IMG/VR virus record: IMGVR_UViG_3300043786_001636
Location: 1 to 57,007 of that record
From: a virus
Taxonomy: Duplodnaviria > Caudoviricetes
Strand: one strand, 5' to 3'
DNA length: 57,007 nucleotides
Position numbers and translations under genes: made by a program. How positions within the stretch are numbered: position 1 is the stretch's first letter; every line of letters starts with the position of its first letter. The notes under the pieces were generated by a model. It saw nothing but the letters and a program-made list of their open reading frames with translations. It was not told the origin of the DNA and searched no databases. Of this stretch, positions 5,587-46,187 are shown piece after piece.

Positions 5587-6416
5587 ATTGCGGTTGTTGT
5601 CGAGTCGTAAGCGAAGGCGAAGTGATTGCCGCCATCAGCGGCACCGTTGCAGGCGGGTGGGCAACTGTTCTTCCAGGCTTCGGAAGCAGCTTTGAGGCCG
5701 ATGGCTTCCCTGATCCCCCCCCCGGCGGCGTGATCAGTGCCTATGCAATCACCCGGGTCTACCAGCAATACCGCACGAGCAACAACGAGTTAATCGGGGA
5801 GGTGGACGGCGTCCAAACGAATGGGACGATTGATCCCCTCCAAATTTGGCTCCCAAACGAATTCGGCGGATTCGACCAAATCAAAGCGCCTGGAGACCCG
5901 GAAATTGAAGAGACAGGCAACAATCCCACCAATGACGGGGAATTCTATTACGTTTACCTGCACGACCGCTGGGACACGGGAACCTGGACCACTGTTTCTA
6001 CAACCACAACCACAGAAACCGTTGCCATCGAAACGTCTGGCGGGCAAACCTACATCGACGAAGAGCGCCTCAACGGTGGACTGGTCTATCGCAAGGTTTG
6101 GGGGCCGATCATCGGGACCGTAGACCACGATGCAATCATGCAGACGCATGCCCATTTAGAGTTTCCTGTCCGCAACTTAACCAATGATTTCGATTGCGCT
6201 GGCGTAGACCTTGGCACCGTGCTTTCCGTGCATGACGAGGTTGCAAACGAAAGCGTTTTGCAAACTGTGGTCATGGACCAACAACAGGTCACCATACCGT
6301 TGCCGACCACCATGAGCGAGGAGGTCGATGGGGTTTCAGGCGCGCTGAACAATTGGGGTTTTGCTTCCCGCTCAATCAATCATTGCCGCAAACTGGGGGC
6401 GCCGGCAATCCTTTAA
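5583..6416 (+). CDS. Hypothetical acidic virion/tail protein
   Basis: Starts MNCGCC at ATG 5583, coupled to the upstream stop. Its end overlaps the giant gene's stop by 4 bp. Confidence 0.6.
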   Translation: MNCGCCRVVSEGEVIAAISGTVAGGWATVLPGFGSSFEADGFPDPPPGGVISAYAITRVYQQYRTSNNELIGEVDGVQTNGTIDPLQIWLPNEFGGFDQIKAPGDPEIEETGNNPTNDGEFYYVYLHDRWDTGTWTTVSTTTTTETVAIETSGGQTYIDEERLNGGLVYRKVWGPIIGTVDHDAIMQTHAHLEFPVRNLTNDFDCAGVDLGTVLSVHDEVANESVLQTVVMDQQQVTIPLPTTMSEEVDGVSGALNNWGFASRSINHCRKLGAPAIL

Positions 6417-18400: not shown

Positions 18401-21400
18401 TTCACCGCGAACGACGCCGGTTTCCGGGTCTGCATTCTCTTTGAAGTTGGGGACGTCCTTCGACAGCTTGAGTTTTGCGACTGGGAACTCAGGCTCAAAT
18501 TCAAACTCAAACGCAACCGCGGTCGCAACATCAGCAACATCAGCAACATCAGCAACATCAGCAACATCAGGCGCAGCGATCAACATCTCTTTCATGGTCG
18601 CGTCCACGTTGCTCACGAAACGCTCCAATGCGATAGACGTCACAACGTCCTCCGCGCTCAGGTCGCGCAACAAGCGGTTCAGCGCCGCCTTTACCCACCG
18701 CAGGATTTTGCTGAAGACCAAGCGCAGTTCCGATTGGCGAATCAAATCCTCTGAAATTTGCCCGCCTGGAATCCTGCCTTCTACCACCATGCGCACCAAT
18801 TCCGATGCCATGTGGAAATCCGTGGCCAATCCTGCGGCGATAGCAGCTTGTTTTGCTTCCTTGGTCTGAAAGTATTCTTTGTTGACCAAAGTTTGCAGCT
18901 TGCGCCCGGCCTCGCTCTTGCCCAATTCGGACCAAACTGCCGCGACTTGCTCTTGCGTGAATTCGCCCTTTGCAATGGCGCGAATCATCGCGTGGTGGAT
19001 GAACTCATGGCGCACGGTTTGCGCCACGTAATCGCGGCGCCCACGTTCCAACTGAGACAAAATAACGCCTCGGTGCAGCACCAACGCCTGCTGCTTCATG
19101 TCGTATTCCATCGGCGGCCCGGTTTTTTCATCGGTCACCACAACTTTTGGAAACGACCGCAACATCGGCGCGACTTCTGGTGCCACTTGCGCCAACCACG
19201 CAATCTGCGCCTCGTTTGGCGATGGCTGCGTTTGCGTTGCTGCAGGAGCAATTTGCTCTTCGACGATGCTCGTGCCTTTAGCAATCGTTGCGCCCTCTCG
19301 CGCAAAAGCCGCAGCAACGTCCTCGTTCGATTGTTGCTCTGCGTAGTCTTTCGTCAGCGTGCGCCCGTCATTGGTCTGAATGGTGTAGCGGAATACCGCC
19401 GCATCCTCCGAGGAAGATGCGGCGGCGTCCTGCCGCCCTTGGCTTTGCGCTTCAGGAGTGCCCACCCCTGAAATTCCAGAAACATTTTCCTGCGCCCTCG
19501 TTTGCGCAGTGGCGCGATTGCCATCCCAGTCGCGCGCTTGTTGCTCAGTCATGGCGCTAAGTTGCGCCACTGCTGGCGACGTTTGCTGCAACCAGGCTAG
19601 GCCAGCGTCGGTGACGATGTTTGCCGTTTGGCCAGCTTCCAAAAACGGCGTATTGATGACGGCTTGCACCGCGCCTATCGCCGCCATTTCCGCTTCTGTG
19701 GCCTGCCCGCCATTGAGGATGCGACCGAGCCCGCGGGCCGCTGCGCGATTCTGTTGCCCTTCTCGGGCGGCTTGCATCTGCGGCGACGCTTCTACGTCCT
19801 GCGGTGCGATCCCTGCCTCCAAAGCCTGCTGGCGAGCCTCTGTGATGGCAGTCACGTCCAAAACCGGATCGGTCTCCTGCGCAGCAGCAACAATCGCCCG
19901 CGCCCGGTCTTGCGTGCGCTGCACCGCCTCGGCAACACTGCGCTCAAAATTCGCAGGGTCATTCAACAAAGCGACTGCGGCCAGCGCCTCGTCGCCGTCG
20001 CGGCTTTGGCCAAACATGCTTTCTGCACGTTGTAACGCTTCCTGCGTTACACCGAGTTCATTTGCCAGACGCGCAGGAGCGATGCGTTGCGCGAGCTCCA
20101 TGTTTGCCCGCAGCACTCGCACCATCGGCTCATTGCTTTCTTCAAGAAGCTTGCGCTGCGCCGTTTGCGCTGCCGGCGTCGTCAAATCCAGACGCGCTTG
20201 ATTGTTGGCGAGGTATTCAAATCGCGATGCTGCGTTTTTGATCTTCGCCGCCCGCGCTGCGATCTGCGGCGTGTAACCGGCGGCAACGAGTTGCTCTGCT
20301 GAGGCTTCAGCCACGGTCGGCAACGAGGCCGCCAGTGCTGCTTTCAGATTCGGGTCTGCGACGTTGTTGAGATCGAAAGTTCCGCGCCCGAGGGCATCAG
20401 CCCTGCGCCCACTGCCGTAGACCATCGGCCCGGACATCATCAATATGCCCATGAGCATTTGCGGGGTCATAGCCACAAACTGCTTCATGTCCGATTGAAA
20501 CCGCGCGCCGATGTCGCCGCGGTCAGCCCCAAACAATTCGGCCACAAGGTCGGCTCCGTAGGGCGTCACCTGTTGCACGACTTCCTCAAGGTATTCTTCC
20601 CCGATCCGCAGGCCGAGGCGGCGACCGAACGAAGCCATGGGTCGCACGCCCACGCGAGCCATGCGAGCCGCAAGCGCTCCTCCCGCGGGGCCTAAACCAA
20701 CTTTGAGCGCTTTGCCCAAAAACCTTTCCACGGCGCCCTGCACCGTGCCGACGAGCACCGCATCCACCAGTTTCTCGGTTGCGGTCATTCGGCGGTATGG
20801 GGGCGGGTTCTCCCCGTTCGCAACTGCCGCGCGATGCTTCAGTTGGTTGTCGCCCTCGATTTGTTGGAGTTGATCTAAACGCTCCCCAGCAAAAGCTGCA
20901 GCCATAAGCGGCACGCCGGCAAAGGGAATGGCGCCGAGACCCATGTAGGGCGCCGAATCGATGACGACTTTGGAGCTTTTCTCAAGGAACCCTTCCGTGG
21001 GCTTGATGAATTTGTCCGCAAACGATCCTTTTGTCGGTTCCCACAAGCGTCCAGTCTGCAGCGCCGAAGGACTCCATTCGCCTTGCTGCAAGTCTTTCAA
21101 GCCCCGAATGAACATGTCGTCCAATGACGCTTGTTTCGCTTGTCTCTGTATGGCTTCGGCTTCCGCTGGCGTGGCCTTGCGCTTGGCGGAGCCTGTGCCG
21201 TAATTGCCCCAAGTGGAACTCATGGGCAATTTGGGCGCGTTTTCGTCATCGACCCACAAAGTCCCGCCTTCCAGCACTTGATCGCGGACTGGTTGTTCAG
21301 CAGCGAGTTGCAACTGACTCAGCACGTTGCCGATGGCGTTTTCGGCGTCGGTCACAACACCTTTGGCGGATTGTTCGGTCTGGCCAAACTCGCCCGCCAA

Positions 21401-25074: not shown

Positions 25075-26891
25075 GCATTTCGCGCAGTTTTCGTGCGTTG
25101 CTGCAGCAGGCTGTCCGCGGTCCCTACGGTTGCCGCGCATGGATCGCCCAGCACGCATGGATTCTGAACAAGGACGGCGAGCTTGAACGATTCGCTCCAA
25201 ACCCGTTGCAGTCGCGCATCTTGGAAGCGCTAGAATTATGCTTGGCGAATAACTGGCCCGTGCGGATTCTCGGCCTAAAGAAGCGCCAAGGCGGTCTCAC
25301 TACGGTGTGCGCTGCGATTCAGTATTGGTTGCTGAACGTCCGCACCACGAACGCCATGGTGATGGGCGGTCTCAAATGGCAATCGGGGAACGTCTGGAAA
25401 TACATCCGTTTTTTCAAGGACCACGACACGTTCGATTGGGGCAACACGTTCAAGTTGGGCGAGGAAATCGGCGCGGTGTCCAATGGGTCTGCTTTGCAGA
25501 AAGGAACCGCTAAACAACCGGAAAGCTGCCGATCTGCAGCGCTGCGCTCCCTGCACTGCACCGAGGTTGCGCGGTGGGCCACCGACGGCGTGGCGAACGC
25601 CGAGCGCATCCTCACGGGCGCCATGGCTTCATTGCCGAAACTCCCGTGGACGTTTGCGATCTGGGAATCGACCGCCGCCGGGCCGACCGGGATGTTCTAC
25701 AAACGCTGGTCTAAAGCGTTGTCCCTTGAGGAAGTCAAAGCCGGACGGAAACCGCGGCCTGGTCAATTCATCAAGGTTTTTGCCGGGTGGCACGAACATG
25801 AAGACAGCCGGCTGTCGATGACCCCCGACGAGCGATCCGAGTTTGAGCGATCGCTCTCCGAGGAAGAACGAGCCTTGATGAATCGGTTTGACCTCAGCTT
25901 GGAACACCTGTTTTTTCGCAGGGTGACCATCGAAGAAGAGTGCAACGGCGACCCGCAAATTTTCAAGCGGGAATACCCGTTCACGCCAGAGGAGGCGTTT
26001 TCGGCGTCCTCCGCTAGTTTCTTCCCCAGCGCAGGTCTGGCGCACCTTCGCAAGCTGGCCGAGGCCGCCGAGCCCGAGCGGCGCGACGTGTTGCTGCACC
26101 GCGAAAACGCATCAGACCGGGTGCTGGCGCTGCCGGTCGAGGCAAAACAGGCTACGGTTTGGATTTATGAACCGCCCTCCCCCGGAAGCGCATACCATAT
26201 TTCGGCTGATTTCATGGAGGGGCTCGCTGCAGACGAAAAGGGGGATGACCGAGACCACCATGTCGTGCAAGTCTGGCGGGGCGGGTTCTTCGCCGCCGAC
26301 GGGCGGTGGCGCCCGCCTAGGGAGGTAGCCCGAACGGTGAAGCCATGCCGCTTCGCGCCAGACATCGTCGAGGATCTCATTGAGAACCTTGCCGCCTATT
26401 ACGGTGACTGTTTGGTCATCCCTGAAAACAACCGGGACGACGGAATCATCCGCAACCTGGTCAACCGCAACGTGCGCGTCTTTCAGGCTACGGTAGGCGT
26501 GGACGAACGAGGAGATGCCGTGACTGCGCGCCCCTCGGGCCGTTACGGTTTCCGCACCACCGGCGGTGACGGAGAGAGCAGTCGCAAAACCATTCTCAAC
26601 GAGCTTGCTGCTGCCGTCCGTCAATTCACTGACGCTGGCAACGGAGTGGAACTCACGCTGACCACGGTCGAGGAAATGGAGGTCTTTTGCCGCAATTTGC
26701 GCGGCAAGCCGGAGGCGATTGCCGGCCACCATGACGACAGCGTCATCGCTGCCGCCATCGGGTTTTTTTTCCGTGACCTCGGAACGCGCTACACGCCGCG
26801 AAAACACGATTTGGCAGCGTTCCTCAGCAACGATCCGCTTTTGCGCAGACAGCAATCACCGCAGCGCGTCGGTGGTGCGTTCGGGTTGTGA
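25071..26891 (+). CDS. terL: Terminase large subunit
   Basis: PNPLQ adenine-binding motif, Walker A LKKRQGGLTT, Walker B LHCTE, coupling motif EST, nuclease SAD, IPENN and HHDDSVIAAAI. Confidence 0.92.
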   Translation: MSISRSFRALLQQAVRGPYGCRAWIAQHAWILNKDGELERFAPNPLQSRILEALELCLANNWPVRILGLKKRQGGLTTVCAAIQYWLLNVRTTNAMVMGGLKWQSGNVWKYIRFFKDHDTFDWGNTFKLGEEIGAVSNGSALQKGTAKQPESCRSAALRSLHCTEVARWATDGVANAERILTGAMASLPKLPWTFAIWESTAAGPTGMFYKRWSKALSLEEVKAGRKPRPGQFIKVFAGWHEHEDSRLSMTPDERSEFERSLSEEERALMNRFDLSLEHLFFRRVTIEEECNGDPQIFKREYPFTPEEAFSASSASFFPSAGLAHLRKLAEAAEPERRDVLLHRENASDRVLALPVEAKQATVWIYEPPSPGSAYHISADFMEGLAADEKGDDRDHHVVQVWRGGFFAADGRWRPPREVARTVKPCRFAPDIVEDLIENLAAYYGDCLVIPENNRDDGIIRNLVNRNVRVFQATVGVDERGDAVTARPSGRYGFRTTGGDGESSRKTILNELAAAVRQFTDAGNGVELTLTTVEEMEVFCRNLRGKPEAIAGHHDDSVIAAAIGFFFRDLGTRYTPRKHDLAAFLSNDPLLRRQQSPQRVGGAFGL

Positions 26892-28860: not shown

Positions 28861-29847
28861 TCATCGGCGCCCTCCGGTCAGGGCCCGTTGGACCTCCAGG
28901 TAGACCTGGTCGTCGTTCGCGGCCTGCTCGAGGAGCGTCGAAAAGTTTGTGCTGATGGGCCCGGATGCGGCTCCGCTGTAGGGGCCGGGACCACGGCCCG
29001 GCACCAAGGTGCTGGAGGCGACAGGGCGACCGGAGGCCGCCGGAGTCACGGAGGACAGCGACGGCGCCAGCCCAAGGGCAAGGGCGACCTTGTTGGCAAT
29101 GTATTTCGGCCCGTCTGCTGCAAAAACGTTGGCGTCGCCCAGGGCTTCCAGCTTTTGCTGCATTTCCGCCATCGCCGCAAACTCGGGCGTCCCTTTGACA
29201 AACAAGTTGGGATACATTTCGCGGACCTGCTCTTCTGCGTCTGTCCATTGCTCGACGAAGCGTTCGTCAGCGCGTTGCTGCTCAAGCAGGTCGGAGCGGG
29301 TTTTTGCCGCAACCGCGTTGGCGTGAGCGAGCAGCAGCTCTCGCTGCTGGTCGATCAGTGCAGAGAGTTTTTCCGGGTCGTAATCATCAACAGCAGTCTT
29401 CCGAATGTCGTCGATCTCGCGCAATCTGGTTTCAATCGCCTCCAGATCGGGGGCGCTTGGTTCATTCGCCGACTCCGGTTCTTGAGCAGGAGCAGGCGCG
29501 ACGGGCGCGGACTCGGTCAAACCCAGCGCAATCCGGGCGCGCGTCAGGGCGACATCGGCCTCGATGGGGCGCCCGAGCGCTGCCGCCAAGTCTGCCAAGC
29601 GTTGCGCCTCGGCAAACACGTTTGGCACCTCGGGGACGACATTGGCGGGAAGCTCAACCGGAGCAGGTGCAACGGTATCAGACACGACCGGCGAAGCGGG
29701 CTCAACACCTGCGACCCGGTGCCCCGCCTGCAGCAAATCTTTGCTGCTTGCGTAGATTTGCTCATCGAATCCGTCTTCAATGAGCGTAGTGTGGAAGTTC
29801 CCAGGATGCTCTGGGACGTGCGTTGTAATGACCTGATCTGACTGCAT
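28861..29847 (-). CDS. Putative capsid scaffolding protein
   Basis: Acidic, Pro/Ala-rich and helical; directly upstream of the capsid gene. Confidence 0.65.
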   Translation of the reverse strand: MQSDQVITTHVPEHPGNFHTTLIEDGFDEQIYASSKDLLQAGHRVAGVEPASPVVSDTVAPAPVELPANVVPEVPNVFAEAQRLADLAAALGRPIEADVALTRARIALGLTESAPVAPAPAQEPESANEPSAPDLEAIETRLREIDDIRKTAVDDYDPEKLSALIDQQRELLLAHANAVAAKTRSDLLEQQRADERFVEQWTDAEEQVREMYPNLFVKGTPEFAAMAEMQQKLEALGDANVFAADGPKYIANKVALALGLAPSLSSVTPAASGRPVASSTLVPGRGPGPYSGAASGPISTNFSTLLEQAANDDQVYLEVQRALTGGRR

Positions 29848-29996
29848 TTTGCGAGAGAAACTGGCGGGCAAACCATTCTCGCAAAGCCTTTTTCTGCGGG
29901 CGGCAGAAACTCGTCGCAACTTGTGCGACCTTTTTCAGGTTTGCAAACAATTTAGTTGAATTAAATTTGCAAACGGGGATGATGCGGAGCCTGCCC

Positions 29997-31124
29997 ATGA
30001 AACCAGTCAAAATTGCGATTCTCATTTGTTCCGGCATTCTCACAGCGTTATCGGTCACCCTAATTGCCGCGATTCACCTCCACGGAAACCATGCTATCGG
30101 CGCCGACGGCACCGATTTTCAGTCATGGGTTGCCGTGGGCGTCACCGTGGTGACCTGCCTGTCCACCCTTCTGCTCGCCATCGTCCTCTGCAATTGTCGG
30201 ACCTTGCTCGGCAACGCCTACTGGCGCGTGGCTTTGGGCGGCGGCGTGTTGCTGCTGTGCTGCGAGGTTGCAACTTTTGCTTGGCTGCGCGCTGGGTTGG
30301 AGCATTCGATGGTTGCGCGGGATCAAACAGCAATTGCCGCGGCGCAAACCCAAGCGTGGGACGAGATTGAGGCGAAATTGCAGACCGCAGTTGCGCAAGC
30401 GCAAGCTGACCCATCAGACGCAATCTCATTGCGGGCCGAGGTCCAGACGACTCGAAATGAAATCGCCGACCTCGCCGCGCAGGCTGCAACGCTGGATAAT
30501 GATGGAATCCGCAACGATGGTCAAATTCCCGGCCTGCTGGCTGCTGCAGAAAGCAGGAAAGCCGATCTTGCCAATTTGGAGTCGCGGTTGGCGGCTGCTC
30601 TGGACAGAAAAGCCTCCGCCGTTGCCGAGGCGGCGGAGGCCCTCCAGCAGCACCAAAAATCCCGGGCCGAGGTTTTAACGGTCATGGCCGCAGCGCAAAC
30701 CCAACGCCATCAATTCGTGAGGTGGGCTGGCGATTTGCGCTCGTTGTTTCCCAAACTCTCGGAGCCCTTTTGCTTGCAGGTGGTGCTTTCGGCTGTGGCT
30801 TTCAGTCTCATGGTCCCCCAATACGCAGGACTGGCCGGGGTCTCTGCTGCGCTGAAAATGCAAACCGGAGTTCCCGCGCAACCGGCGGCGCCGTCAAATC
30901 GCCGGCGGCGGAAACCGATGAACGTTATCGATGGAAAATTCCTGCCTGAGGATCGGGCGAGTTTGCACTGGCTGGCTCAGAAAGCACGCGAGCTCGGTGT
31001 CATTCGGAACTGCAAAACGTCGTTGGGCAAATATGCAACGCGCAATTTGCGCACGCTGGTGCGCAACGCGCAAAGCAATTCAAGGTTCAGATCAGAGTGC
31101 GAGAATTTCCGCCGGGCCGGCTGA
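29997..31124 (+). CDS. Membrane protein with three N-terminal TM segments, a coiled coil and a C-terminal TM segment (DUF4407-like architecture)
   Basis: Hydrophobic helices followed by a long Ala-rich coiled coil. Antisense to the surrounding head genes. Confidence 0.6.
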   Translation: MKPVKIAILICSGILTALSVTLIAAIHLHGNHAIGADGTDFQSWVAVGVTVVTCLSTLLLAIVLCNCRTLLGNAYWRVALGGGVLLLCCEVATFAWLRAGLEHSMVARDQTAIAAAQTQAWDEIEAKLQTAVAQAQADPSDAISLRAEVQTTRNEIADLAAQAATLDNDGIRNDGQIPGLLAAAESRKADLANLESRLAAALDRKASAVAEAAEALQQHQKSRAEVLTVMAAAQTQRHQFVRWAGDLRSLFPKLSEPFCLQVVLSAVAFSLMVPQYAGLAGVSAALKMQTGVPAQPAAPSNRRRRKPMNVIDGKFLPEDRASLHWLAQKARELGVIRNCKTSLGKYATRNLRTLVRNAQSNSRFRSECENFRRAG

Positions 31125-31359
31125 GTTGCTGGTCAAGCACGTCAAGTTGTCCCGGCGCCCATTGCACGACCCAGAGCAAAGCGTCCCGTCGCGCCCGCAG
31201 AGCGGGGACTTCCTCCGGTTTGCAATGCTCTAAAAGAGCGTTTTCGATGGTGCCGATGGCGGCGTCCAACGCTTCCTGCAGACGAGCGTAACCTGGCGTG
31301 GCCACGAACTTCGTGAGGTCGTCGTGTCGCTTTGCGTCTTCGGGCGTGAATCGGTTCAT
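31087..31359 (-). CDS. Small helical protein downstream of portal
   Basis: 90 aa, coupled to the portal stop, at a position typical of podovirus head operons. Confidence 0.6.
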   Translation of the reverse strand: MNRFTPEDAKRHDDLTKFVATPGYARLQEALDAAIGTIENALLEHCKPEEVPALRARRDALLWVVQWAPGQLDVLDQQLSRPGGNSRTLI

Positions 31360-33530
31360 ACGCTGGGCTCCACCGCCATGAGGGGTGATGTGACCGGCGC
31401 AGACGGCAACGGAGCTCCCTGCGGCGGGATAGGTGCCGATTGCTCAAGCAGTTCGATTGCCATTTCGGCGTTCGGCGTTTCAAACAGTCGCAATTGCCGC
31501 AACGTCAGCGCTCGGATCGCCGCTTTGACTTCGGGTGGTTGCGCCGCAAAATCTTTGAGCATGGCAATGGCCGCGAGGTTTTGCTGGCTCTGCGCCTCGG
31601 CCCGGAACCGGCTGATTTCGAGGCGCAAATCGAAATCGAATTCCTCGACATTCGCTCGCTCAATGGTTGCCACGGCCACCTCGTTGCCGGCCAGGTAACG
31701 GAAGGTTTCTTTTTCGTCCATGTTCTGCAGCAGCAATTTTATCGCGGTGTGCGTGGCGGCTTCAATGCCTTCGGAGAGTTGGGCAATGAACGGAGCGAAC
31801 TGTTCTTGGTTGGACCGCTCAAGGTGCCGAATGCCAGTGGCCAAATTAGCGGTCTCAAGGCCGGCCATCTGCGCGTCGTTGCTGCTGCTGACGCCTGACA
31901 TGTTCGTCATCATTTGCGTGAGGAACTCAATCATTGCCTGCAGGTTGTTCTGCTTTATGTCAACGATGGGTGTCGCCGTGAACCCGACTTTGCCAGTCGA
32001 GTTTGGCAAACGAGTGTAAACGTGCCCTCCGTTTAAAGCCACGTTGACCGGGTTGGGCTGGCCCTCGAAGTCGCGGTAGACCGACGGGTCCATTTCGTAG
32101 AAGTAGCCGCTGCGCTGGTTGCTCAGGTTGATCCGGTTGAACTGCAGATCGATGCTGCTGTTGAGTTGCCAGCAATCCTCCACCGCCGATTGACCGTGCC
32201 AGCGGTTGTCCACCGGATTGACGCGCACGCAGTGGAACGGTCTGCCGGGGGCGTAGTTGGCGAGGTAATCGTAGAAGATTGGGCGCATGTTCGCCTTGTC
32301 TAAGAGCACGACGATGTTCTGGGTCTGCCCGCGGCCCAGCGCGTCGTAATGCAAGTAGCACTCGGCGATTTCCATGTTCGGTTCCACCGTCAAAGAACTG
32401 TCGTTGGAGGAGACCTGCCCGCTGTAGCCTGGGCTGTAAGTGATTTCGCCCAGGTCGGCCCGGGGAGATCGCTCCGCCGTCCATTGCCTTCTTTGGCCGC
32501 CTTGGTTGCGCAACAATTCGATGATCTTGGGGAGGTTGTCGGCTTGCCCGCTGCGCTGCAAATGCGCCATGTACTCGCCAGCCACGTCAATTGCGGGACG
32601 CGAATAGAGGTGCGCGATGAATTTGGCATCGTCAATGCTGCGTTCGCGCGGGCTGAGAAGGACGTCCTTGTAATTGGGAATTGCGAGGTCAAGCCCGTTA
32701 AATTGGATTTTTTCGCGGTGGATCAGGCGGTAATCAAACACCAGGTTGGCCTCGTCGCCTTCCGCCCAGTTTGGCAAGGCCGTTGTTGTTGACCGGCTCA
32801 AAACCCGGTAGGTCTGTGTCTCGTCCCATTCCCAGTAATCGCTTGGGAAAATGTAATCGCCGTCATCTGCCACGAGGGGTTCGCCATCCACGTCAATGGC
32901 GACCTCGGCGTATTGCTGGTAGTATTCCGATTGCTTGCGCCAGGTAGACTTGACCAAGGCTTCGCCGCGGATAAAAGCGAAAGCGATTGCTTGCGCCAGA
33001 ATGGGTTGAATTTTGGCACGGTTAAAGGCCCATTTGGTCCAGTCGTCCACCAGACGCGCAGTCTCCGCGTCATCTGCGCCTGCAGGAGAGATCGTATACC
33101 ACGGGTCGGTGCCAAAAAAATACCCCTGCGCCCGGGAAATCTGCTGCTTCACGATCCGGTGCGAAAGAGGAATGTGTATGTTGCTCTCTCGGAAAATGGG
33201 CGCCGAGAATTGCCGCCACTCAAGCTGCATCGCGTAGATCATGTCCCACTTTTCTCTTTTCCCGAAAAAGGAATTCATGGGGTCTTGCTCCTGATTGTCC
33301 GTGCTTGACGCATGCTGGCGCCACCAACCTGGTTCGTTGACAATGTTGCGACCCATCTCCGCTTCCAGACCGGCGATTTGCTGGCCGATGTGGAGCATGA
33401 GTTGGTCTTCCTGTTCTCGCGTGAGTTCCAGCGCTGAGGCGAACACGGTGCGGGGCGCGTCTGGCGGCAAGGAAACCTCTAGTCGGCCAGGCAGGGTTGA
33501 CAGGAACGCGTCAAGTTGGTTGCTTTTCAT
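31356..33530 (-). CDS. Portal protein
   Basis: About 724 aa. FFGTDPW, IRGEALVKSTW, RWHGQS and MSGVS..MAG..LATGI motifs of P22/N4-like portals. Confidence 0.85.
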   Translation of the reverse strand: MKSNQLDAFLSTLPGRLEVSLPPDAPRTVFASALELTREQEDQLMLHIGQQIAGLEAEMGRNIVNEPGWWRQHASSTDNQEQDPMNSFFGKREKWDMIYAMQLEWRQFSAPIFRESNIHIPLSHRIVKQQISRAQGYFFGTDPWYTISPAGADDAETARLVDDWTKWAFNRAKIQPILAQAIAFAFIRGEALVKSTWRKQSEYYQQYAEVAIDVDGEPLVADDGDYIFPSDYWEWDETQTYRVLSRSTTTALPNWAEGDEANLVFDYRLIHREKIQFNGLDLAIPNYKDVLLSPRERSIDDAKFIAHLYSRPAIDVAGEYMAHLQRSGQADNLPKIIELLRNQGGQRRQWTAERSPRADLGEITYSPGYSGQVSSNDSSLTVEPNMEIAECYLHYDALGRGQTQNIVVLLDKANMRPIFYDYLANYAPGRPFHCVRVNPVDNRWHGQSAVEDCWQLNSSIDLQFNRINLSNQRSGYFYEMDPSVYRDFEGQPNPVNVALNGGHVYTRLPNSTGKVGFTATPIVDIKQNNLQAMIEFLTQMMTNMSGVSSSNDAQMAGLETANLATGIRHLERSNQEQFAPFIAQLSEGIEAATHTAIKLLLQNMDEKETFRYLAGNEVAVATIERANVEEFDFDLRLEISRFRAEAQSQQNLAAIAMLKDFAAQPPEVKAAIRALTLRQLRLFETPNAEMAIELLEQSAPIPPQGAPLPSAPVTSPLMAVEPSV

Positions 33531-33717
33531 TGCGCAGGAAGGATTCAATGGCTTGCGCGGCTTTCAAGGCTCGCCTGTAAGCTCGGCCTCGATTGCCGTG
33601 CGCGCTGTCGCCGAAAAACAACCGCAGCCGTTTGCCTTGCCGAGCAAAAGCAACTTGGTAGCCGTGTGGCCCGCGGATGACATGGCTGAATGTGCGCACC
33701 GATGGGTTTCTTGGCAT
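33511..33717 (-). CDS. Small AP2-like DNA-binding protein
   Basis: GYQVAFARQGKRLRLFFGDSAHGNRGRAYRRA resembles the AP2/integrase-type three-stranded DNA-binding fold. Confidence 0.55.
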   Translation of the reverse strand: MPRNPSVRTFSHVIRGPHGYQVAFARQGKRLRLFFGDSAHGNRGRAYRRALKAAQAIESFLRNEKQPT

Positions 33718-33817
33718 GATTGGTTGGCAAATGCACCTGCAAAAAACGCTCCGCGCGGAACTCTGTTGAAGTTGGCGGAACAAAACTCAAGGTTTTGCGG
33801 GTGAATGCAGATTTCGG

Positions 33818-33845
33818 TTGCAGCATGTAAAAAACGTGATACTTA
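33818..33845 (+). promoter_or_regulatory. Putative promoter TTGCAG-N16-TACTTA with extended TG
   Basis: Same motif and spacing as 46136-46163 (TTGCAGC-N5-AAAAACGTGATA). Confidence 0.5.
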
Positions 33846-33852
33846 CCCGTAG

Positions 33853-33907
33853 CGAAACGCTCTTGGGCGTCGCCGGGAGCGTCCTCCCCGGCCTGATGAG
33901 ACAGGAC
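33853..33907 (+). ncRNA. Hammerhead ribozyme, type II, with a loop I pseudoknot
   Basis: C-GAAA (33853-57), stem III ACGCU-CUUG-GGCGU, cleavage triplet GUC (C33871), stem I GCCGGG/CCCGGC, CUGAUGA-G (33893-900). Loop GUCCU (33881-85) is complementary to AGGAC (33903-07). Confidence 0.8.
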
Positions 33908-33953
33908 AACGGCCCGGCGGAACCGGGATCATCAAACGCAAAAGCGAGAGAGA

Positions 33954-34256
33954 ATGAAATATAGAATGGATGACGGGACCGTAGTTGACACAGACCGCGC
34001 GTCAAATCACTGGAACGAAGACACGTTCTGGGACGGCAACAACCACATCAGCCGGGCAACGGGTTCGCAGTGGAATCACCAAACCCTCTACCAATCCCGA
34101 AAGGGGCGCTACTACGTGGAAAGCACGAGTCAATGGCAAGGATCGCGCGACCATGTCGAATGGGTCAGCCGGGAAGAGGCCGCCCGATGGTTACTGGCGA
34201 ACGAGCACCAGTTGCCGGAAGATCTGGCAAATCTCGAAGACGAGATTACTGAGTAA
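33954..34256 (+). CDS. Small hypothetical phage protein (stand-alone unit)
   Basis: 100 aa, Trp-rich, with a QTLYQSRKGRYY..S.WQG..VSREEAARWL motif and a purine-rich leader. Confidence 0.75.
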   Translation: MKYRMDDGTVVDTDRASNHWNEDTFWDGNNHISRATGSQWNHQTLYQSRKGRYYVESTSQWQGSRDHVEWVSREEAARWLLANEHQLPEDLANLEDEITE

Positions 34257-34266
34257 CTGAGTAATT

Positions 34267-34359
34267 TGCCGAAAGGCATTGGCGGCGCGCATAGCGTCAA
34301 CTACCACGGACCCGCGTCAGAGCAATCTGGCGCGGGTCTCTCCGCCTTTAGATTAGGCG
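34267..34359 (+). other. Cluster of four hairpins (3' structured RNA or bidirectional terminator)
   Basis: TGCC-GAAA-GGCA; TTGGCG/CGTCAA; GGACCCGCGTCAGA-GCAA-TCTGGCGCGGGTCT; CGCCT/AGGCG. Confidence 0.55.
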
Positions 34360-34363
34360 AACG

Positions 34364-35038
34364 TCACCCCCGCAAATCAGCCGTCATCTTCCGCAACATT
34401 CTTGCCGAGATGCCGTCTTCGCAGAGGTGCGGTTTGGGGTAAACTTTTCCCCCCTCGACGACGTAGTCGGGGCGCTGTATGTAGACTTGGGCGCTGGGGC
34501 GAGTCGATTTGGATCGTTCACGACGATCGCATTCATCCAACCAGGCAGCTTGTTCGGCTGGCGTGCGCAATCCGACGTGCGACCCCGCGGCCCGGAACAC
34601 CTGTTTGATTTGCGCTGCGGACATGGTTGCGGGGTCGGCCATAATGGTATCGGTTTTCCCGTCGGGTCCGCGCAACAGCAACTGCACTCGCTCGTTCATG
34701 ACCTTTTCCTGTTCTGCGACCGGCAACCTAGCCATGAGTGTCGCCACGCGCCCCCGCAGAAACACCGCCTGTGGCGTCAAGTGCCCTTCTCCGACGGCCT
34801 GCAGTCTGCGGAACACGTCCTGCGTGGCCGCCGGAACCGCAGCCAGCAACTCCTCGCGACCCTCATCGCTCATCTTGCAGAGCATTTTGCCGACCTCAAG
34901 GAGGTCTGCAGACATGGAATTTATGCGAGCCAAAATCTGCTCTGCCAAAGCGCGATCCGCTTTAGACATATGTGTCAGAGCGTAGCCAAGGGGCGATTCA
35001 AGCTCCATCGGAGCCGCTGTCGTGATCGTTCGTTTCAT
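34364..35038 (-). CDS. Hypothetical protein
   Basis: Likely start MKRTITT at 35038; helical, 224 aa. Confidence 0.65.
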   Translation of the reverse strand: MKRTITTAAPMELESPLGYALTHMSKADRALAEQILARINSMSADLLEVGKMLCKMSDEGREELLAAVPAATQDVFRRLQAVGEGHLTPQAVFLRGRVATLMARLPVAEQEKVMNERVQLLLRGPDGKTDTIMADPATMSAAQIKQVFRAAGSHVGLRTPAEQAAWLDECDRRERSKSTRPSAQVYIQRPDYVVEGGKVYPKPHLCEDGISARMLRKMTADLRG

Positions 35039-35255
35039 TTTTTCTAGGGTTGATTCCTGCAATCGCTGCCTCCACATTTGCTTCATGCTGCTCGGCCCGG
35101 CGCGCCCTTGTTCGATCCGTCTGTTGCGCTCGGTGTTTCTTCGAGGCTTCAGCGCGGTGATCAAGGAAGGTCTCGTCGTCCCGGTTCCGTTCATACCATC
35201 GGGCGGTTGCCGCTCGCACCGCCAACCGTTGACGTTCTTTGTCTCTGTAAGGCAT
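34998..35255 (-). CDS. Small basic hypothetical protein
   Basis: N-terminus MPYRDKERQR..WYERNR is common in phage proteins. Confidence 0.5.
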   Translation of the reverse strand: MPYRDKERQRLAVRAATARWYERNRDDETFLDHRAEASKKHRAQQTDRTRARRAEQHEANVEAAIAGINPRKNETNDHDSGSDGA

Positions 35256-35393
35256 GCCTTGCCAAAGAATCACGCACTAGCAGGCTCGCAACGGCGTCCG
35301 CGTTTTGTCCGCACGTTTTCTTCATGACATGATCACTCCAGAGTCAAAACCGCCCTTTTTCCCCGATGACAACAACCGAACTGACCGAAGAAA

Positions 35394-35419
35394 CACAGGT
35401 TCAAATCCTGTACCGCGCA
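35394..35419 (+). mobile_element. attP: attP core candidate (3' end of a tRNA, possibly tRNA-Val)
   Basis: ACAGG-TTCAAAT-CCTGT T-arm, then ACCGCGC acceptor strand and discriminator A. No 5' tRNA half. About 90 bp upstream of the integrase. Confidence 0.8.
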
Positions 35420-35508
35420 TTTCCTCGGACCGCATTCTCAATGCCACGAAAAGTCAAACCTAACAGTGCGTTGACAAATCTGTCCGCAGATTGTCCGCGA
35501 GTTTGACC

Positions 35509-36612
35509 ATGCTGAAACCCGGAGAGGTCCACATCCGCGAAATTGGTCCCGGCACAGACAAATTTGACCGAGGCTACAGAGCGGTTGCAACCTTTCGGGC
35601 AAAGAAGAAACGGAAGACGAAATATTTCGCGTCCTTGCGTCAGGCGAAGCTTTGGGCGACGCAATGGCAAGCGCAGGTCATGGCTTCTGGGGCCGCCACC
35701 CCACTGAGCGTTGAGGAGGTTGCGGCAGTGGCGTCGGCCCGCGCAGAAATCGCCGCTTTAAAAAGCACGCTTTCCGAAGTCATCGATGCTGGACTGCCTA
35801 TCGTTCGGGCGCGCAGACTCGGGATCAGCGTGGCGAATTTGGCAGATTTGCGCATAAACAACATGAGATCGCAGGGCGGCAGCAAAGCGCATCTCGCAAA
35901 CTCCATTGCGAGGTTGCACAAATTTGCACAAGCGTTTGGGTCGCGGTCGGCAGCTTTGCTGAGCACAGCAGAAATCGATGCGTGGCTCACTGCGTTGCCA
36001 TGCTCACCGCGGACTCGATTTAATTTCCGGGACTCCATCAGCGCAATGTACGCAAACGGAATCCGCCTCGGACTGCTTGAGCAAAACCCCGTGGTCCGAA
36101 CTCTGCGACCCATTCTGCGGCAAGGGAAGATTGCCATTTTTACGCTGCCTCAGGTCCGCACGTTGCTGAGGATTGCGCCGACCGTCAACGGTTTGGGCTA
36201 CGTCGTGCTGGGTTTGTTTGCCGGCTTGCGGTCCTCTGAAACCATGCGGTTGAAACCAACCGATTTTGGCCCCGGGTGGGTGCGCATTGAATATGGCAAG
36301 ACGCGCGGATCGCGGCGCGTCGTCCGTCTCAATGAGACAGCCTTGGCTTGGTTGCCAGCCGACCCGCTGGCCGACCACGGCGACAAACGCCGCATCAAAC
36401 TGCATGCAGCCATGCCCTTCCCGTGGCCGATCAACGGATTGCGTCACTCGTTTGCCTCCTACCACTTGGCGCATTTTCGCGACCTTACCACGCTCGCTGC
36501 GGACATGGGGTCGTCGCCCGCGGTTGTGCGGCGCGACTACGCCGAATTGGTTTCCCCAGCCGACGCCGCTGAATTTTGGGCATTGCGCCCAACCGATTCG
36601 ACGACTGAGTGA
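35509..36612 (+). CDS. int: Tyrosine integrase
   Basis: Arm-binding N-terminus, core-binding domain, and catalytic GLRSSE, KT, NGLRHSFASY and MGSS..RRDY motifs. Confidence 0.9.
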   Translation: MLKPGEVHIREIGPGTDKFDRGYRAVATFRAKKKRKTKYFASLRQAKLWATQWQAQVMASGAATPLSVEEVAAVASARAEIAALKSTLSEVIDAGLPIVRARRLGISVANLADLRINNMRSQGGSKAHLANSIARLHKFAQAFGSRSAALLSTAEIDAWLTALPCSPRTRFNFRDSISAMYANGIRLGLLEQNPVVRTLRPILRQGKIAIFTLPQVRTLLRIAPTVNGLGYVVLGLFAGLRSSETMRLKPTDFGPGWVRIEYGKTRGSRRVVRLNETALAWLPADPLADHGDKRRIKLHAAMPFPWPINGLRHSFASYHLAHFRDLTTLAADMGSSPAVVRRDYAELVSPADAAEFWALRPTDSTTE

Positions 36613-37277
36613 AAGACCTCCGGGTTGACGTCTTTGGCGGTCTCCAACAATGCCCGCAGGGTCGCCGGGTCAGACAACCAAGAAGGGTCGGTTTCCTCGG
36701 GCGCGGTCACCGCTTGGTGCTCAATCCGCTGCGCGGGGCGCCCGATGAGATACTCGGCGTAATACATCATAGCTTTGTGCCTGGCGGCCCAGTCAGGGAA
36801 TTCATGCTGCTCACCGTCCTTAGTCAGCATGACCTTGGTTGCCTGCAACATGGAGCGCATGGTTTGCGCGACCTCATGCACGCTCACCGCAGCGTCGAGG
36901 CTGGAGCTCAAGGCTTCGCCGGCGCGCTTGGGGTCAACGATGACAAGGGCCGGCGCCTCTGCAACAAGGCCGTTTGGCATATGTTGGCCGCCGTAGTCAA
37001 TCAACGTAGCTTGCCCGCTGGCGATCTTGCCGGCAATCGCACAGGCTTGCTTTTCTCCAAAAGCCCCGACGCACTCAACCGGGGTTTTGGGAGGAGGATC
37101 GCCTCGCTCTATAGCGTAGTAGGCAATGACCCAAGGGTCAGAGGTTCCCCGCAAAAGCCCTGCTTCCCGGGCCGCGGCGCCGTTGTAGACCACGACGCGG
37201 TCGAGCGAGGCCGCCACAATGCGTTCCCAGACCCATCCGGGGTCCGTCCTGTAGAGGTGCTGTTTTCGTGGTTTCAT
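36537..37277 (-). CDS. Hypothetical protein, possible terminase small subunit
   Basis: C-terminal PDWAARHKA..YLIGRPAQRIEH resembles TerS-like proteins. Coupled to the upstream regulator. Confidence 0.45.
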   Translation of the reverse strand: MKPRKQHLYRTDPGWVWERIVAASLDRVVVYNGAAAREAGLLRGTSDPWVIAYYAIERGDPPPKTPVECVGAFGEKQACAIAGKIASGQATLIDYGGQHMPNGLVAEAPALVIVDPKRAGEALSSSLDAAVSVHEVAQTMRSMLQATKVMLTKDGEQHEFPDWAARHKAMMYYAEYLIGRPAQRIEHQAVTAPEETDPSWLSDPATLRALLETAKDVNPEVFHSVVESVGRNAQNSAASAGETNSA

Positions 37278-37558
37278 TGAGCTAATGCGATTTTGAGGAG
37301 GTGCGTCATGACGACGCGCACGCTGGTCTTGTTGGTTTCCGCCAAAACCTGCACGGTTTCGCGCAACGCTTCGTTGCGAATGAACAATTGCGAAGGTTGC
37401 AGCGGCGCCGGCAATTCGCCGAGGCTTGGCGGCAAATGCTGCACTGCTGCGGCGCAATGATGGGCGACCCAATTTGCAAGTGGGCGCCCCTCGACGTCGG
37501 CTCGTTGTTGCGCTCGTTGCCGCATGGCAGATTCTACTTGGAAACTAATAATCTTCAT
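37274..37558 (-). CDS. Putative ribbon-helix-helix (tandem) transcriptional regulator
   Basis: Two RHH-like units (ISFQVES..RADVEGRPLANW and QLFIRNE..LAETNKTSV). Divergent from the MarR-like gene. Confidence 0.55.
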   Translation of the reverse strand: MKIISFQVESAMRQRAQQRADVEGRPLANWVAHHCAAAVQHLPPSLGELPAPLQPSQLFIRNEALRETVQVLAETNKTSVRVVMTHLLKIALAQ

Positions 37559-37670
37559 TGTTTAACAATTGACAAATCCAAAATGACAAGGCATTGGGTC
37601 AAATGTGCATCGCGCACATTTTTTGTCAAAACCCTTTGACTTGTAACGTAATTCAACCAGTCTTCAGAAA
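37559..37670. promoter_or_regulatory. Divergent promoter/operator region (candidate lysis-lysogeny switch)
   Basis: AT-rich, with several TTGACA/TGTCAA boxes and the inverted repeat AAATGTGC-N5-GCACATTT. Confidence 0.6.
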
Positions 37671-37979
37671 ATGGTATCAGACACGACAGTCGCGACAGTC
37701 GCACGGTTTCAGGTGCTGAAGAAAGCCGGAGTCAACAGCATCTCGTCAGCAACAGTTCTGTTGCTGACGGCGAAGCAGAAAAACGCTTCGCTCACAATGC
37801 TGTCCCGCCAAATCGGGCACACCACCGCAGCCATTACCGGCGTAGTCGATGCCCTAGAAAGGGCGGGATTGGTCACGAGGGTGACTTCTTGCTGCGACCG
37901 CCGAGTCACCCTGCTCGCCCTAACGCAAAAGGGCGAAGCTGTAATCGCTGAATTTTATGAAGACACCACCATCGCCTGA
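37671..37979 (+). CDS. MarR-family winged-HTH regulator
   Basis: LSRQIGHTTAAITGVVDALERAGLVTR...DRRVTLLALTQKG is a MarR signature. Confidence 0.85.
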   Translation: MVSDTTVATVARFQVLKKAGVNSISSATVLLLTAKQKNASLTMLSRQIGHTTAAITGVVDALERAGLVTRVTSCCDRRVTLLALTQKGEAVIAEFYEDTTIA

Positions 37980-38199
37980 AATCGTCGTGGACGATTTCGC
38001 CCCGGACCCTGACCTGCTGCAGTGGGTCGAACAAAGTCAAATTCTGCTGGGCAATCCCGGCAATCACAACCCTCACGCCCTCTACTTTTGGGGGCGCTAC
38101 ACGGAATCGCTTATGCAACGATTCGCCGATGACGAGGAAAATCTCGCGTTTATGGACGCGCACCTTGAGGAATTGCGAGAAGAAAGGAGGGTCGCGTGA
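37957..38199 (+). CDS. Hypothetical protein
   Basis: 80 aa, coupled to neighbours, with a GGAGG RBS for the next gene at its end. Confidence 0.6.
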   Translation: MKTPPSPEIVVDDFAPDPDLLQWVEQSQILLGNPGNHNPHALYFWGRYTESLMQRFADDEENLAFMDAHLEELREERRVA

Positions 38200-39023
38200 G
38201 CGAAATCATTCCCGTAGGCCAAGAGAAACTTCTCGCCGACACGATAATGCCGGGCGCATCGATGCCCGAGTTAAAATTTTTTGCAGAAGTGTGCAACCGG
38301 ATGGGGCTTGACCCTTTCCGGCGCGAAATCCACGCAGTGAAACGCCGCGTCCAAGAAGGCGGTTCGTGGGTGGAACGATACGTTTTCCAAACCGGCATCG
38401 ACGGGTATCGGAAACGGGCGGCGGGCACTGGAGCTTACGCAGGCTCCGATGTGATTACCGAACCAGCCGATGCACCGATCCCAGCCATTGCGCGGGCCAC
38501 AGTCTGGCGCATGGTTTCCGGCCAACGGGTGGCCTTCACGGCATCCGCTCGTTGGAGCGAATACGTTCAAACGTCCAGAGAAGGCAAGCCAACCGCGATG
38601 TGGGCCAAGATGCCCCACACGATGCTGGAGAAGGTGGCGGAGGCCAAGGCTTTGCGGCGGGCCTTCCCCGACGAACTCAGCGGTCTTTACGCAGAGGAGG
38701 AAATGCAACAGGCCAGCAACCCGCCGTCGGCCCCGGCAACTCCAGCCCCGGTTGACTTGGTTGCGACCGTCAATGCCGCCACTCCTAAGCCTCAGCCCGC
38801 ACCCGCCAAAGCTCCGGCTGCCGCGAACCGGAGCGAGGCCGAGGACCTCATCAACCGCCGCATGGAGGAGGATGGAATTTCGGAGTCCGCCCTCAACGCT
38901 TGGGTTGAAAGCCAAACCAAGGGCGCCGTGGATCGCTGGCAAGACCTCCCCGACAAGCACCTGTGTGCTTTGGCCGGAGATGCCAAATGGTCTCAATTCA
39001 CCTCAACCCTTCCTGCAGCATGA
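38196..39023 (+). CDS. bet: Single-strand annealing recombinase Bet/RecT
   Basis: GLDPFRREIH, TGIDGYRKRA and W.KMPHTMLEKVAEAKALRRAFP motifs. Confidence 0.9.
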   Translation: MSEIIPVGQEKLLADTIMPGASMPELKFFAEVCNRMGLDPFRREIHAVKRRVQEGGSWVERYVFQTGIDGYRKRAAGTGAYAGSDVITEPADAPIPAIARATVWRMVSGQRVAFTASARWSEYVQTSREGKPTAMWAKMPHTMLEKVAEAKALRRAFPDELSGLYAEEEMQQASNPPSAPATPAPVDLVATVNAATPKPQPAPAKAPAAANRSEAEDLINRRMEEDGISESALNAWVESQTKGAVDRWQDLPDKHLCALAGDAKWSQFTSTLPAA

Positions 39024-45326: not shown

Positions 45327-45438
45327 CGCCCTCTACGCTTGCAATTCACGCGCGTGCGCAAACTGCGGGACACCGCAGCCTTCATGCGAGGACGAGCCAA
45401 AACTTTGCAACTCACGCAAATGAAGTAAATTGCCAGCA

Positions 45439-46032
45439 ATGCCCGGGAAGCCAGCAAAACAAACACCGAAACGCGATTCGGTCTATTATTCCGACGAGGA
45501 AATGGAACTGATACTGTCGGCCATATCCCGCCGCACCAAGACTGGGTTGCGCGACCGGGCCGCCGTGCTGGTCATGTGGCGCGGCATGCTGCGCGTGAAC
45601 GAATGTTTGCAGGTGCGTATAGCTGACATCGATTTTAAGACTCGCGAATTGCGAGTGCTGCACGGGAAAGGCGACCGCGCCCGCACCGTGGCGCTGCCAC
45701 CATCTGCGATTGAGGCGATTCAAGCCTGGCTAGAGGTCCGCAAGAAACTCCCAGCCACAAAACTGGACCCGTTGTTTTGCTCGTTATACGGCAAATGTTT
45801 AGACCCGTCTCATTTTCGACATAAACTTCCGCGGATCGCCGCTAAAATTGACCTCGGCAAACGACTTCACGCGCACGGGTTCCGCCATTCCGGGGCCGTA
45901 AGAATGAAACGCCGCGGCATCAACACCATGCAGATATCGTCCGGCCTAGGTCACGCCAACATACAAACGACGGAGACCTATTTGCACCACTTGCGCAACG
46001 ACGATGTCATTGCAATCATGCGCGAGGAATGA
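45439..46032 (+). CDS. Minimal tyrosine recombinase (catalytic domain only)
   Basis: About 197 aa with the complete catalytic set: MLRVNE, GKG, HGFRH and LGH..TTETY. Confidence 0.9.
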   Translation: MPGKPAKQTPKRDSVYYSDEEMELILSAISRRTKTGLRDRAAVLVMWRGMLRVNECLQVRIADIDFKTRELRVLHGKGDRARTVALPPSAIEAIQAWLEVRKKLPATKLDPLFCSLYGKCLDPSHFRHKLPRIAAKIDLGKRLHAHGFRHSGAVRMKRRGINTMQISSGLGHANIQTTETYLHHLRNDDVIAIMREE

Positions 46033-46088: not shown

Positions 46089-46122
46089 ATGAAACACGTT
46101 TCTGTCAAAAAACGTGTTTCAT
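46089..46122. other. 34-bp 13-8-13 inverted repeat (lox-like site or operator)
   Basis: ATGAAACACGTTT-CTGTCAAA-AAACGTGTTTCAT with perfect arms, starting 57 bp after the recombinase stop. Confidence 0.6.
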
Positions 46123-46163: not shown

Positions 46164-46187
46164 CGGGTATCAGACACGACCACGACC

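Follow-up and report, generated by a model that had tools for sequence, protein, structure and literature searches.

A probable pseudoknotted type II hammerhead ribozyme at the head of a proposed one-gene cassette in a complete phage genome

Introduction

Hammerhead ribozymes of the type II permutation have been known since 2011 and, as pattern matches in the IMG/VR collection attest, they are abundant in phage contigs. The present work is concerned with one of them, located on the + strand of the IMG/VR record IMGVR_UViG_3300043786_001636, a complete virus genome of 57,007 base pairs (bp) with direct terminal repeats, which was analysed over its whole length (hereafter the window). The ribozyme lies 53 nucleotides (nt) before the start codon of an open reading frame (ORF) of 100 amino acids (aa). 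It is very probably a real hammerhead in the evolutionary sense, and the best explanation of the whole, in which we place moderate confidence, is that of a genuine pseudoknotted type II hammerhead heading the self-cleaving transcript of a one-gene cassette. That it would cleave at a useful rate in vivo is, as judged from its sequence, an evenly balanced proposition.

Several described systems help to place this locus. RiboJ, a synthetic ribozyme insulator, was engineered from the hammerhead of a plant satellite RNA, and its original description is reportedly that of Lou et al. 2012. RNA ends carrying a 5′-OH slow down 5′-end-dependent decay. Phage morons, familiar from the lambdoid phages, are autonomous cassettes made of a promoter, a gene and a terminator, placed between the genes of late operons; to our knowledge a ribozyme is not part of their classical description. 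RiboJ has been seen to increase transcript abundance about twofold, in the part of PMC6206723 drawn upon here.

As for the natural family, the portions of Perreault 2011 (PMC3088659) used here accept a hammerhead on the basis of its core bases and of pairs 10.1-11.1, 1.1-2.1 and 15.1-16.1. They state that in most type II members loop I forms at least 4 bp with the nucleotides right after stem II, and that stem II is often no longer than 2 bp. A metagenome ribozyme whose stem II is a single pair is there recorded as cleaving at a rate above 1.2 per min, its pseudoknot being required. In the same portions a hammerhead of haloviruses HF1/HF2 ('HHphage') has its cut site at most 3 nt from a mapped transcript 5′ end, and it can therefore be understood as defining the start of the mRNA; the role of phage hammerheads is there suggested to be the processing of long transcripts. 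A non-exhaustive search of the literature found nothing on the function of promoter-adjacent phage hammerheads beyond these two sources (PMC3088659, PMC6206723).

Architecture of the hammerhead

Read along the + strand, the motif is made of the following elements.

33852-33907 (Rfam match 33850-33910), + strand: type II hammerhead motif, by sequence reading and by Rfam
33853-57, + strand: CGAAA, by sequence reading
33857-33870, + strand: stem III, 5 bp, A33857-U33861 with G33866-U33870, the last pair being U.G; CUUG loop at 33862-65
33871-33872, + strand: predicted cut site between C33871 (position 17), which ends a GUC triplet, and G33872, from the position within the motif
33872-33892, + strand: stem I, 6 G-C-rich bp, GCCGGG 33872-77 with CCCGGC 33887-92
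33878-86, + strand: loop I, 9 nt, AGCGUCCUC, which holds the pseudoknot strand GUCCU 33881-85
33893-33907, + strand: CUGAUGA core 33893-99, then G33900, A33901, C33902 and the pseudoknot strand AGGAC 33903-07

The order is that of CGAAA, stem III hairpin, cut site, stem I hairpin and CUGAUGA, with stems I and III capped by loops and stem II open, which is the type II permutation. The conserved core is complete: CUGAUGA at 33893-99, GAA at 33854-56 and, at the cut position, C33871 (an H17 base, not G). The core-adjacent pairs are all present, namely G33900:C33853 (10.1-11.1), G33872:C33892 (1.1-2.1) and A33857:U33870 (15.1-16.1). To this is added a pseudoknot of 5 bp between GUCCU 33881-85 and AGGAC 33903-07. 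Stem II is restricted to the single pair G33900:C33853, the next position being a G33852.A33901 mismatch, and it reaches 2 bp (G33852:C33902) if A33901 is bulged. This economy poses no problem, since short and even 1-bp stems II are documented in active members in the part of PMC3088659 considered above. An earlier note on this DNA, written by a model from the letters alone, had described a complete type II hammerhead on the + strand with a 5-bp GUCCU/AGGAC pseudoknot and a stem II of about one G-C pair; direct reading of the sequence bears this out, down to every coordinate.

Score and the question of chance

The Rfam model of the family, RF02276 (Hammerhead_II), matches with 31.4 bits over its full length (model positions 1-66). 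The corresponding E-values are 7.1e-5 (221 nt), 0.018 (whole window, 4,227 families) and 4.3e-6 (RF02276 alone), and in the window this is the sole match with E<1 among all 4,227 families. The gathering score of RF02276 is 37 bits. The search with Rfam models that the earlier note had proposed has a divided outcome, then, with a full-length match that stands below the score of acceptance.

Other tests do not depend on that score. A structural descriptor combining the core, the three core-adjacent pairs, a stem I of at least 5 bp and a stem III of at least 4 bp finds one match in the window, while 400 windows simulated by a first-order Markov model give none. Without the stems, the sequence pattern with the G-A-C that follows the core here occurs in 66 stretches of 596 Gb of prokaryote genomes, approximately the number expected by chance according to our estimate. 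When these 66 are pooled with the window and with the one other IMG/VR record that showed this form under the pattern used (L130), both stems are present in 3 of the 68 matches: the window, L130 and a weak case, L156, the only one that comes from the genome stretches. Chance is a poor explanation in the light of the E-values, of the 0/400 simulated windows and of the 1/66 genome stretches with both stems.

We may nevertheless consider what speaks for a fortuitous likeness to hammerheads, without shared ancestry. The score is under the gathering score and, across some 250,000 windows, an E-value of 4.3e-6 per genome leads to about one chance match of such a score. Set against this are the absence of descriptor matches in the simulated windows, the weaker character of the single two-stem match among 66 core-pattern matches in the genomes, an intergenic site ahead of a gene like that of real hammerheads, the abundance of real type II hammerheads in phage contigs and a pseudoknot that the covariance model does not score and that is nonetheless found at the family position with the family geometry. 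It is this pseudoknot, unscorable by such models, together with the placement before a gene, that argues that the hammerhead is not the one chance match to be expected; we hold a fortuitous resemblance to be extremely improbable.

Comparison with other phage hammerheads

The comparison set consisted of at least 118 IMG/VR stretches obtained with a narrow pattern (133 matches including the window's own), and the controls were drawn with the same pattern. Among the matches listed the pseudoknot covaries, with loop/tail combinations such as GUGGUG/CAGCCA, GUAGUG/CAGCUA, GUCGUG/CAGCGA and GUUGUG/CAGCAA. Three of the listed matches (L109, L123 and L047) make up a sub-form in which stem I has 6 bp, the loop 9-11 nt and the pseudoknot 5 bp, with 3 unpaired loop bases before the pseudoknot and 4 bases from A9 to it. 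The window hammerhead shares this geometry, counting GUCC/GGAC as the core of its pseudoknot, and its stem I is identical to that of L123.

The G-A-C form after the core is rare, being found under the pattern used in a single other IMG/VR record, L130; it may already figure in published type II alignments. The L130 copy, which has a 6-bp pseudoknot and lies between a stop codon and a ribosome-binding site, scores 35.2 bits, again below the gathering score, and belongs to a cluster with two further hammerheads (44.9 and 37.7 bits). In five phage records with hammerhead clusters, the 12 matches extend from 27.5 to 46.3 bits and 5 of them are under the gathering score (27.5-36.9 bits), so that a sub-threshold score is normal for real members. 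Several copies in the records of L130, L109 and L123 score 35.2-36.9 bits, so that genuine members of phage arrays escape the Rfam cut-off. These three records (G011, G009 and G010, respectively) contain 3-4 type II hammerheads each, the copies being within about 2 kb in those of L130 and L123; in that of L109 two are about 360 nt apart and the third is about 3.5 kb off.

Placement directly before a gene is typical of phage hammerheads. If we call gene-leading a ribozyme followed within 40 nt by an ORF with its start codon and a Shine-Dalgarno-like site, this is the situation of 83 of the 112 distinct phage hammerheads among the matches listed. The distance to the start codon has a median of 25 nt among these phage hammerheads, against 53 nt here.

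A competing fold and the isolation of the element

A number of results weigh against the view proposed here and are best considered together, beginning with a fold that competes with the ribozyme.

33857-33882, + strand: 10-bp alternative hairpin, 33857-66 with 33873-82, in the minimum free energy fold

This hairpin consumes stem III, the 5′ strand of stem I and two bases of the pseudoknot, and it leaves the cut site in its loop. The hammerhead secondary structure amounts to -12.9 kcal/mol versus -22.8 kcal/mol for the minimum free energy fold, a gap of 9.9 kcal/mol which stays open after addition of a rough -5.4 kcal/mol for the pseudoknot. A gap of at least 9.9 kcal/mol is seen in only 4 of the 104 distinct phage controls among the matches listed; the pairing probability of stem III is 0.02 versus a control median of 0.97, with values of 0.05 or less in 3 of the 104 controls listed. 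The 100-nt region taken as a whole is no stabler than its shuffles (z -0.06). The competing hairpin leaves the activity of the ribozyme uncertain.

The element is also isolated. At gathering thresholds Rfam returns no match in the window, and it identifies neither a second hammerhead nor another ribozyme family in the genome, which therefore has a single copy where many phages have clusters. The earlier note had raised the possibility that homologues of the 100-aa ORF would share an upstream hammerhead, and this is not what is observed. Homologues (about 70% identical) were collected at 14 viral or metagenome loci, some of them mutual duplicates, and at 40 genome loci; none of the 54 has a hammerhead upstream (0/14 and 0/40), and the upstream regions do not align. 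A similar picture comes from relatives of the gene on the other side of the ribozyme.

31356-33548 by Pfam (recorded start 33530), - strand: SU10-type portal gene

In 80 loci with portal relatives (30-36% identity, 620,518 bases), gathered with a portal profile, the type II descriptor has no match, and the 100-aa ORF is likewise found in none. The phages that carry ORF homologues are unrelated to this one, the portal being present in 0 of the 4 records searched, and single-protein searches with the portal and with the 276-aa protein encoded downstream of the cassette returned no relative in IMG/VR or in genomes. A close relative is a 22.6-kb contig encoding both P0001, a 98% identical version of the ORF, and P0122, a member of the portal's 90%-identity cluster; P0124, on a contig of 49 kb, is a portal with 69% identity. 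The covariation described above is that of the type II family at large.

Two kinds of candidates near ORF homologues were discarded. Hammerhead_II matches of 17.8 bits, about 2 kb from the homologues in two records, comprise a CUGAUGA-like word only, in GC-rich and probably coding sequence; a descriptor match in L293, 1.3 kb downstream of a homologue and with a 3-bp stem III, was taken as chance.

It is in this context that we must weigh the idea of a relic, inactive or barely active, that arrived with mobile DNA and whose RNA would be mostly locked in the 10-bp hairpin, the gene being expressed regardless. The 9.9 kcal/mol gap and the stem III probability of 0.02 make the motif an outlier among the 104 controls; its stem III, of 5 bp including a U.G, reaches just -4.9 kcal/mol when folded alone and is thus weak beside the mostly G-C-rich stems of the controls; and the single copy, the absence of the ribozyme before 54/54 ORF homologues and the score under the gathering score all go in the same direction. 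Decay would however be expected to strike first the invariant core, the core-adjacent pairs and the 5-bp pseudoknot geometry, which are all intact, and nearest-neighbour energies leave out tertiary contacts and Mg2+, while gaps as large exist in 4 of 104 controls that are presumably functional. We consider a relic unlikely, if worth keeping in mind, and retain as preferred reading the genuine hammerhead that heads the transcript of the cassette.

The promoter-like motif and its second copy

Upstream of the ribozyme is a motif that recurs once in the genome.

33818-33845, + strand: promoter-like motif, TTGCAG 33818-23, a 16-nt spacer with TG, and TACTTA 33840-45; predicted start at about A33851
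46136-46163, + strand: second copy of the motif, 22/28 identical, with the layout kept, the start codon of an 81-aa + strand ORF following 25 nt further on

The earlier note had described a promoter-like motif ending at 33845, a proposal that stands in part. To the unfavourable points of the previous section must be added that the motif is weak by the sigma-70 consensus (5/12, a score equalled at about 24% of + strand positions), that a scan for this consensus does not call it, and that the repeat is only moderately unusual: of 1,536 sampled 28-mers, 34 have a best non-self match of at least 22/28, and 23 of those reach at least 24/28. What holds is the recurrence before another + strand ORF, in the intergenic region just after the tyrosine-recombinase gene. 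The pattern TTGCAG-N10-AAAAACGTGATA(C/G)TT has exactly two occurrences in the genome, both on the + strand, with equal spacing and a common GTA at the predicted start, and both copies display -35, TG and -10 elements at promoter spacing. There is moderate support for seeing in the 28-nt motif a phage-specific promoter, possibly with an operator. A look-up of sequencing runs containing 29500-38500 listed none of RNA, which carries no weight either way.

Were this not so, an active ribozyme might still process a longer + strand transcript coming from upstream, antisense to the portal gene, and 33818-45 would be an operator or some other site. The inside of long transcripts is indeed the usual context of phage and prophage hammerheads (L130 and the part of PMC3088659 used here), the motif agrees with sigma-70 at 5/12 positions only, and AAACGTG of its spacer is also found in both arms of an inverted repeat, 46090-46121, that looks like a protein-binding site. 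No convincing + strand gene exists upstream, however, where a 169-aa + strand ORF and a 93-aa - strand ORF have negative codon scores, the other strand codes for the portal below 33530, and the promoter elements are correctly spaced in both copies of the motif. We find a longer transcript quite unlikely, and keep a start close to the ribozyme as the preferred reading.

The inverted repeat just mentioned is perfect over 12 nt (arms 46090-101 and 46110-121) and is situated just upstream of the second motif copy; the word AAACGTG is common to its arms and to the spacers of both promoter-like motifs. The repeat may act as an operator or, alternatively, as terminator of that recombinase gene, and Rfam yields at this place chance-level palindromic matches only. 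An exact 15-mer, GGTATCAGACACGAC, has three + strand copies, 29674-29688, 37673-37687 and 46166-46180. The first lies some 290 nt upstream of a possible + strand ORF (29967-31124), the second coincides with the annotated start of a MarR-like gene, and the third comes right after the second promoter-like motif. At the 33818-45 copy the hammerhead occupies the place of GGTATCAGACACGAC, which may be a common 5′ leader or a binding site. A search for additional repeats of the ribozyme's intergenic sequence was negative.

The downstream gene and a proposed cassette

Beyond the ribozyme the + strand continues with the following features.

33913-33927, + strand: 5-bp hairpin CCCGG/CCGGG, between the ribozyme and the ribosome-binding region
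33946-33953, + strand: purine-rich Shine-Dalgarno-like stretch just 5′ of the start codon, by sequence reading
33954-34256, + strand: ORF of 100 aa with a positive codon score, from a widespread family that counts 507 related protein clusters
34267-34359, + strand: three clustered hairpins, at 34267-78, at 34308-39 (14-bp stem) and at 34343-59, between the 100-aa ORF and a 276-aa - strand gene

The ORF and the hairpin cluster, both announced in the earlier note, are real, as witnessed for the former by the 507 clusters and the codon score, and for the latter by folding energies far from those of shuffled sequences on the + strand (z -4.68, 0/200 shuffles as good; z -2.29 on the - strand). The note had also called the gene stand-alone, which it is: lying on the + strand, it diverges from the portal gene and converges with the 276-aa gene, both on the - strand. 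Its family, whose members measure about 101 aa and share 28 invariant columns over 29 sequences, is spread over unrelated phages and metagenome-assembled genomes (MAGs) of many phyla. The protein has no family in Pfam or PHROG. Its structural model is confident and mostly beta (predicted local distance difference test, pLDDT, 84.5), and a fold search of the PDB with it gave nothing at E<=0.001, the best value being E 0.38. The early or lysogen-expressed effector suggested in the earlier note thus finds no backing in these Pfam, PHROG and PDB searches. This family of 507 clusters, widespread and with no known fold or function match found here in Pfam, PHROG or PDB, may merit study in its own right.

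The hairpin cluster is likely a terminator or a 3′ stabiliser; no canonical U-run accompanies it, and a terminator scan lists there a weak site, 34332-45, alone. Taking these features together, we infer an autonomous accessory, 'moron'-like cassette that would be composed of promoter, ribozyme, hairpin, ribosome-binding site, gene and terminator.

Genome context

The 93-aa - strand ORF (33545-33826) that apparently abuts the ribozyme is probably no gene: its codon score is negative, it is unrecorded, and the portal start is recorded at 33530. The 169-aa + strand ORF (33295-33804) has a negative codon score too, and neither reading is in the protein collection. Since the 93-aa ORF is probably not a gene, the ribozyme would sit within a divergent intergenic region of about 420 nt (33531-33953), from the portal start to the 100-aa ORF and probably non-coding, instead of between packed - strand genes.

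Codon scores favour + strand ORFs at 25098-26891, 29967-31124 and 35491-36612, inside what appears to be a - strand structural block, so that gene orientation between 23 and 37 kb is a mosaic and not one long - strand operon. Relatives of the first of these, of 597 aa, lie beside the portal in 3 of the 80 related loci. The genome further encodes a likely major head protein, a DnaB-like helicase, an HNH-helicase, a short tyrosine recombinase and a polyvalent protein of 5,579 aa. The ORF of the latter, 6413-23152 on the - strand, takes up 29% of the genome and matches ART-PolyVal (ADP-ribosyltransferase of polyvalent proteins) and DUF7178, which identifies it as a giant polyvalent phage protein. 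The tyrosine recombinase (45430-46032, + strand, 200 aa) matches Phage_integrase with E 2.6e-34, its usual N-terminal domain seemingly missing; the phage may be temperate, this short protein being the sole hint. Among GenBank phages there was no match to the DNA of the ribozyme region, to the 100-aa ORF or to the portal.

A possible mechanism

If the elements act as their order suggests, transcription would start with the first bases of the ribozyme, at about A33851, a position for which there is moderate support. The RNA would then cut itself after C33871 and shed a piece of about 21 nt, carrying the 5′-triphosphate and stem III. The remaining mRNA would begin with a 5′-OH end buried in the stem I hairpin, to be followed by the 33913-27 hairpin and by the ribosome-binding region. 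In this way the 5′ end of the mRNA would be defined, independent of the promoter and probably longer-lived. A stabilising role akin to that of RiboJ is what we infer, by analogy only. The 10-bp alternative hairpin, for its part, would probably render cleavage slow or conditional.

One may go further and imagine a natural promoter-adjacent insulator with a built-in switch, in which the 33857-82 hairpin would keep the ribozyme off and a signal would decide whether the mRNA is trimmed. Candidate signals are the speed of co-transcriptional folding, pairing with antisense RNA made from the divergent portal operon, a protein or the temperature. This elaboration is very doubtful; if it were true, the switch would couple expression of the cassette to the late programme of the phage.

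A hammerhead heading a one-gene transcript would offer a natural test of whether cleavage sets the 5′ ends and the stability of bacterial mRNAs, as it does with RiboJ. It would likewise bear on whether natural hammerheads can become conditional through a rival hairpin.

Comparison with known systems

With the type II hammerheads of RF02276, as described in the part of PMC3088659 used here, the window hammerhead has in common the core, the permutation, the pseudoknot of loop I with the 3′ tail and the minimal stem II. Here, too, the setting is a phage genome and the position directly ahead of a gene. It differs from them by its 31.4 bits, under the gathering score; by an A at position 10.2, as a mismatch or a bulge, which under the pattern used is seen in one other IMG/VR record; by its single copy, without the array that flanks genes elsewhere; and by its orientation against both neighbour genes, combined with a strong competing hairpin.

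The hammerhead of HF1/HF2 belongs to an archaeal virus, has a variant core and heads a polycistronic early transcript, according to the source used here, whereas that of the window has a canonical core, would head a single-gene unit and is known from sequence alone. With RiboJ the likeness is one of layout only: promoter, hammerhead, extra hairpin and ribosome-binding site come in the same succession, and cleavage of RiboJ removes a promoter-derived leader, while the present element is natural, of type II and pseudoknotted. The moron offers a parallel for the unit as a whole, a small accessory gene with promoter-like and terminator-like elements of its own among structural genes. The gene family here is scattered over unrelated phages and MAGs and is absent from 80/80 portal-relative loci; that the phage lysogenises is hinted at by the 200-aa tyrosine recombinase alone, and expression from a prophage would be conjectural.

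We can therefore understand the window hammerhead as one more example, with an uncommon form of stem II, of a large known family and not as a new class. Its uncommon points are a cassette of one gene set antisense to its neighbours, a position that is likely next to a promoter, the A at 10.2 and the strength of the competing hairpin.

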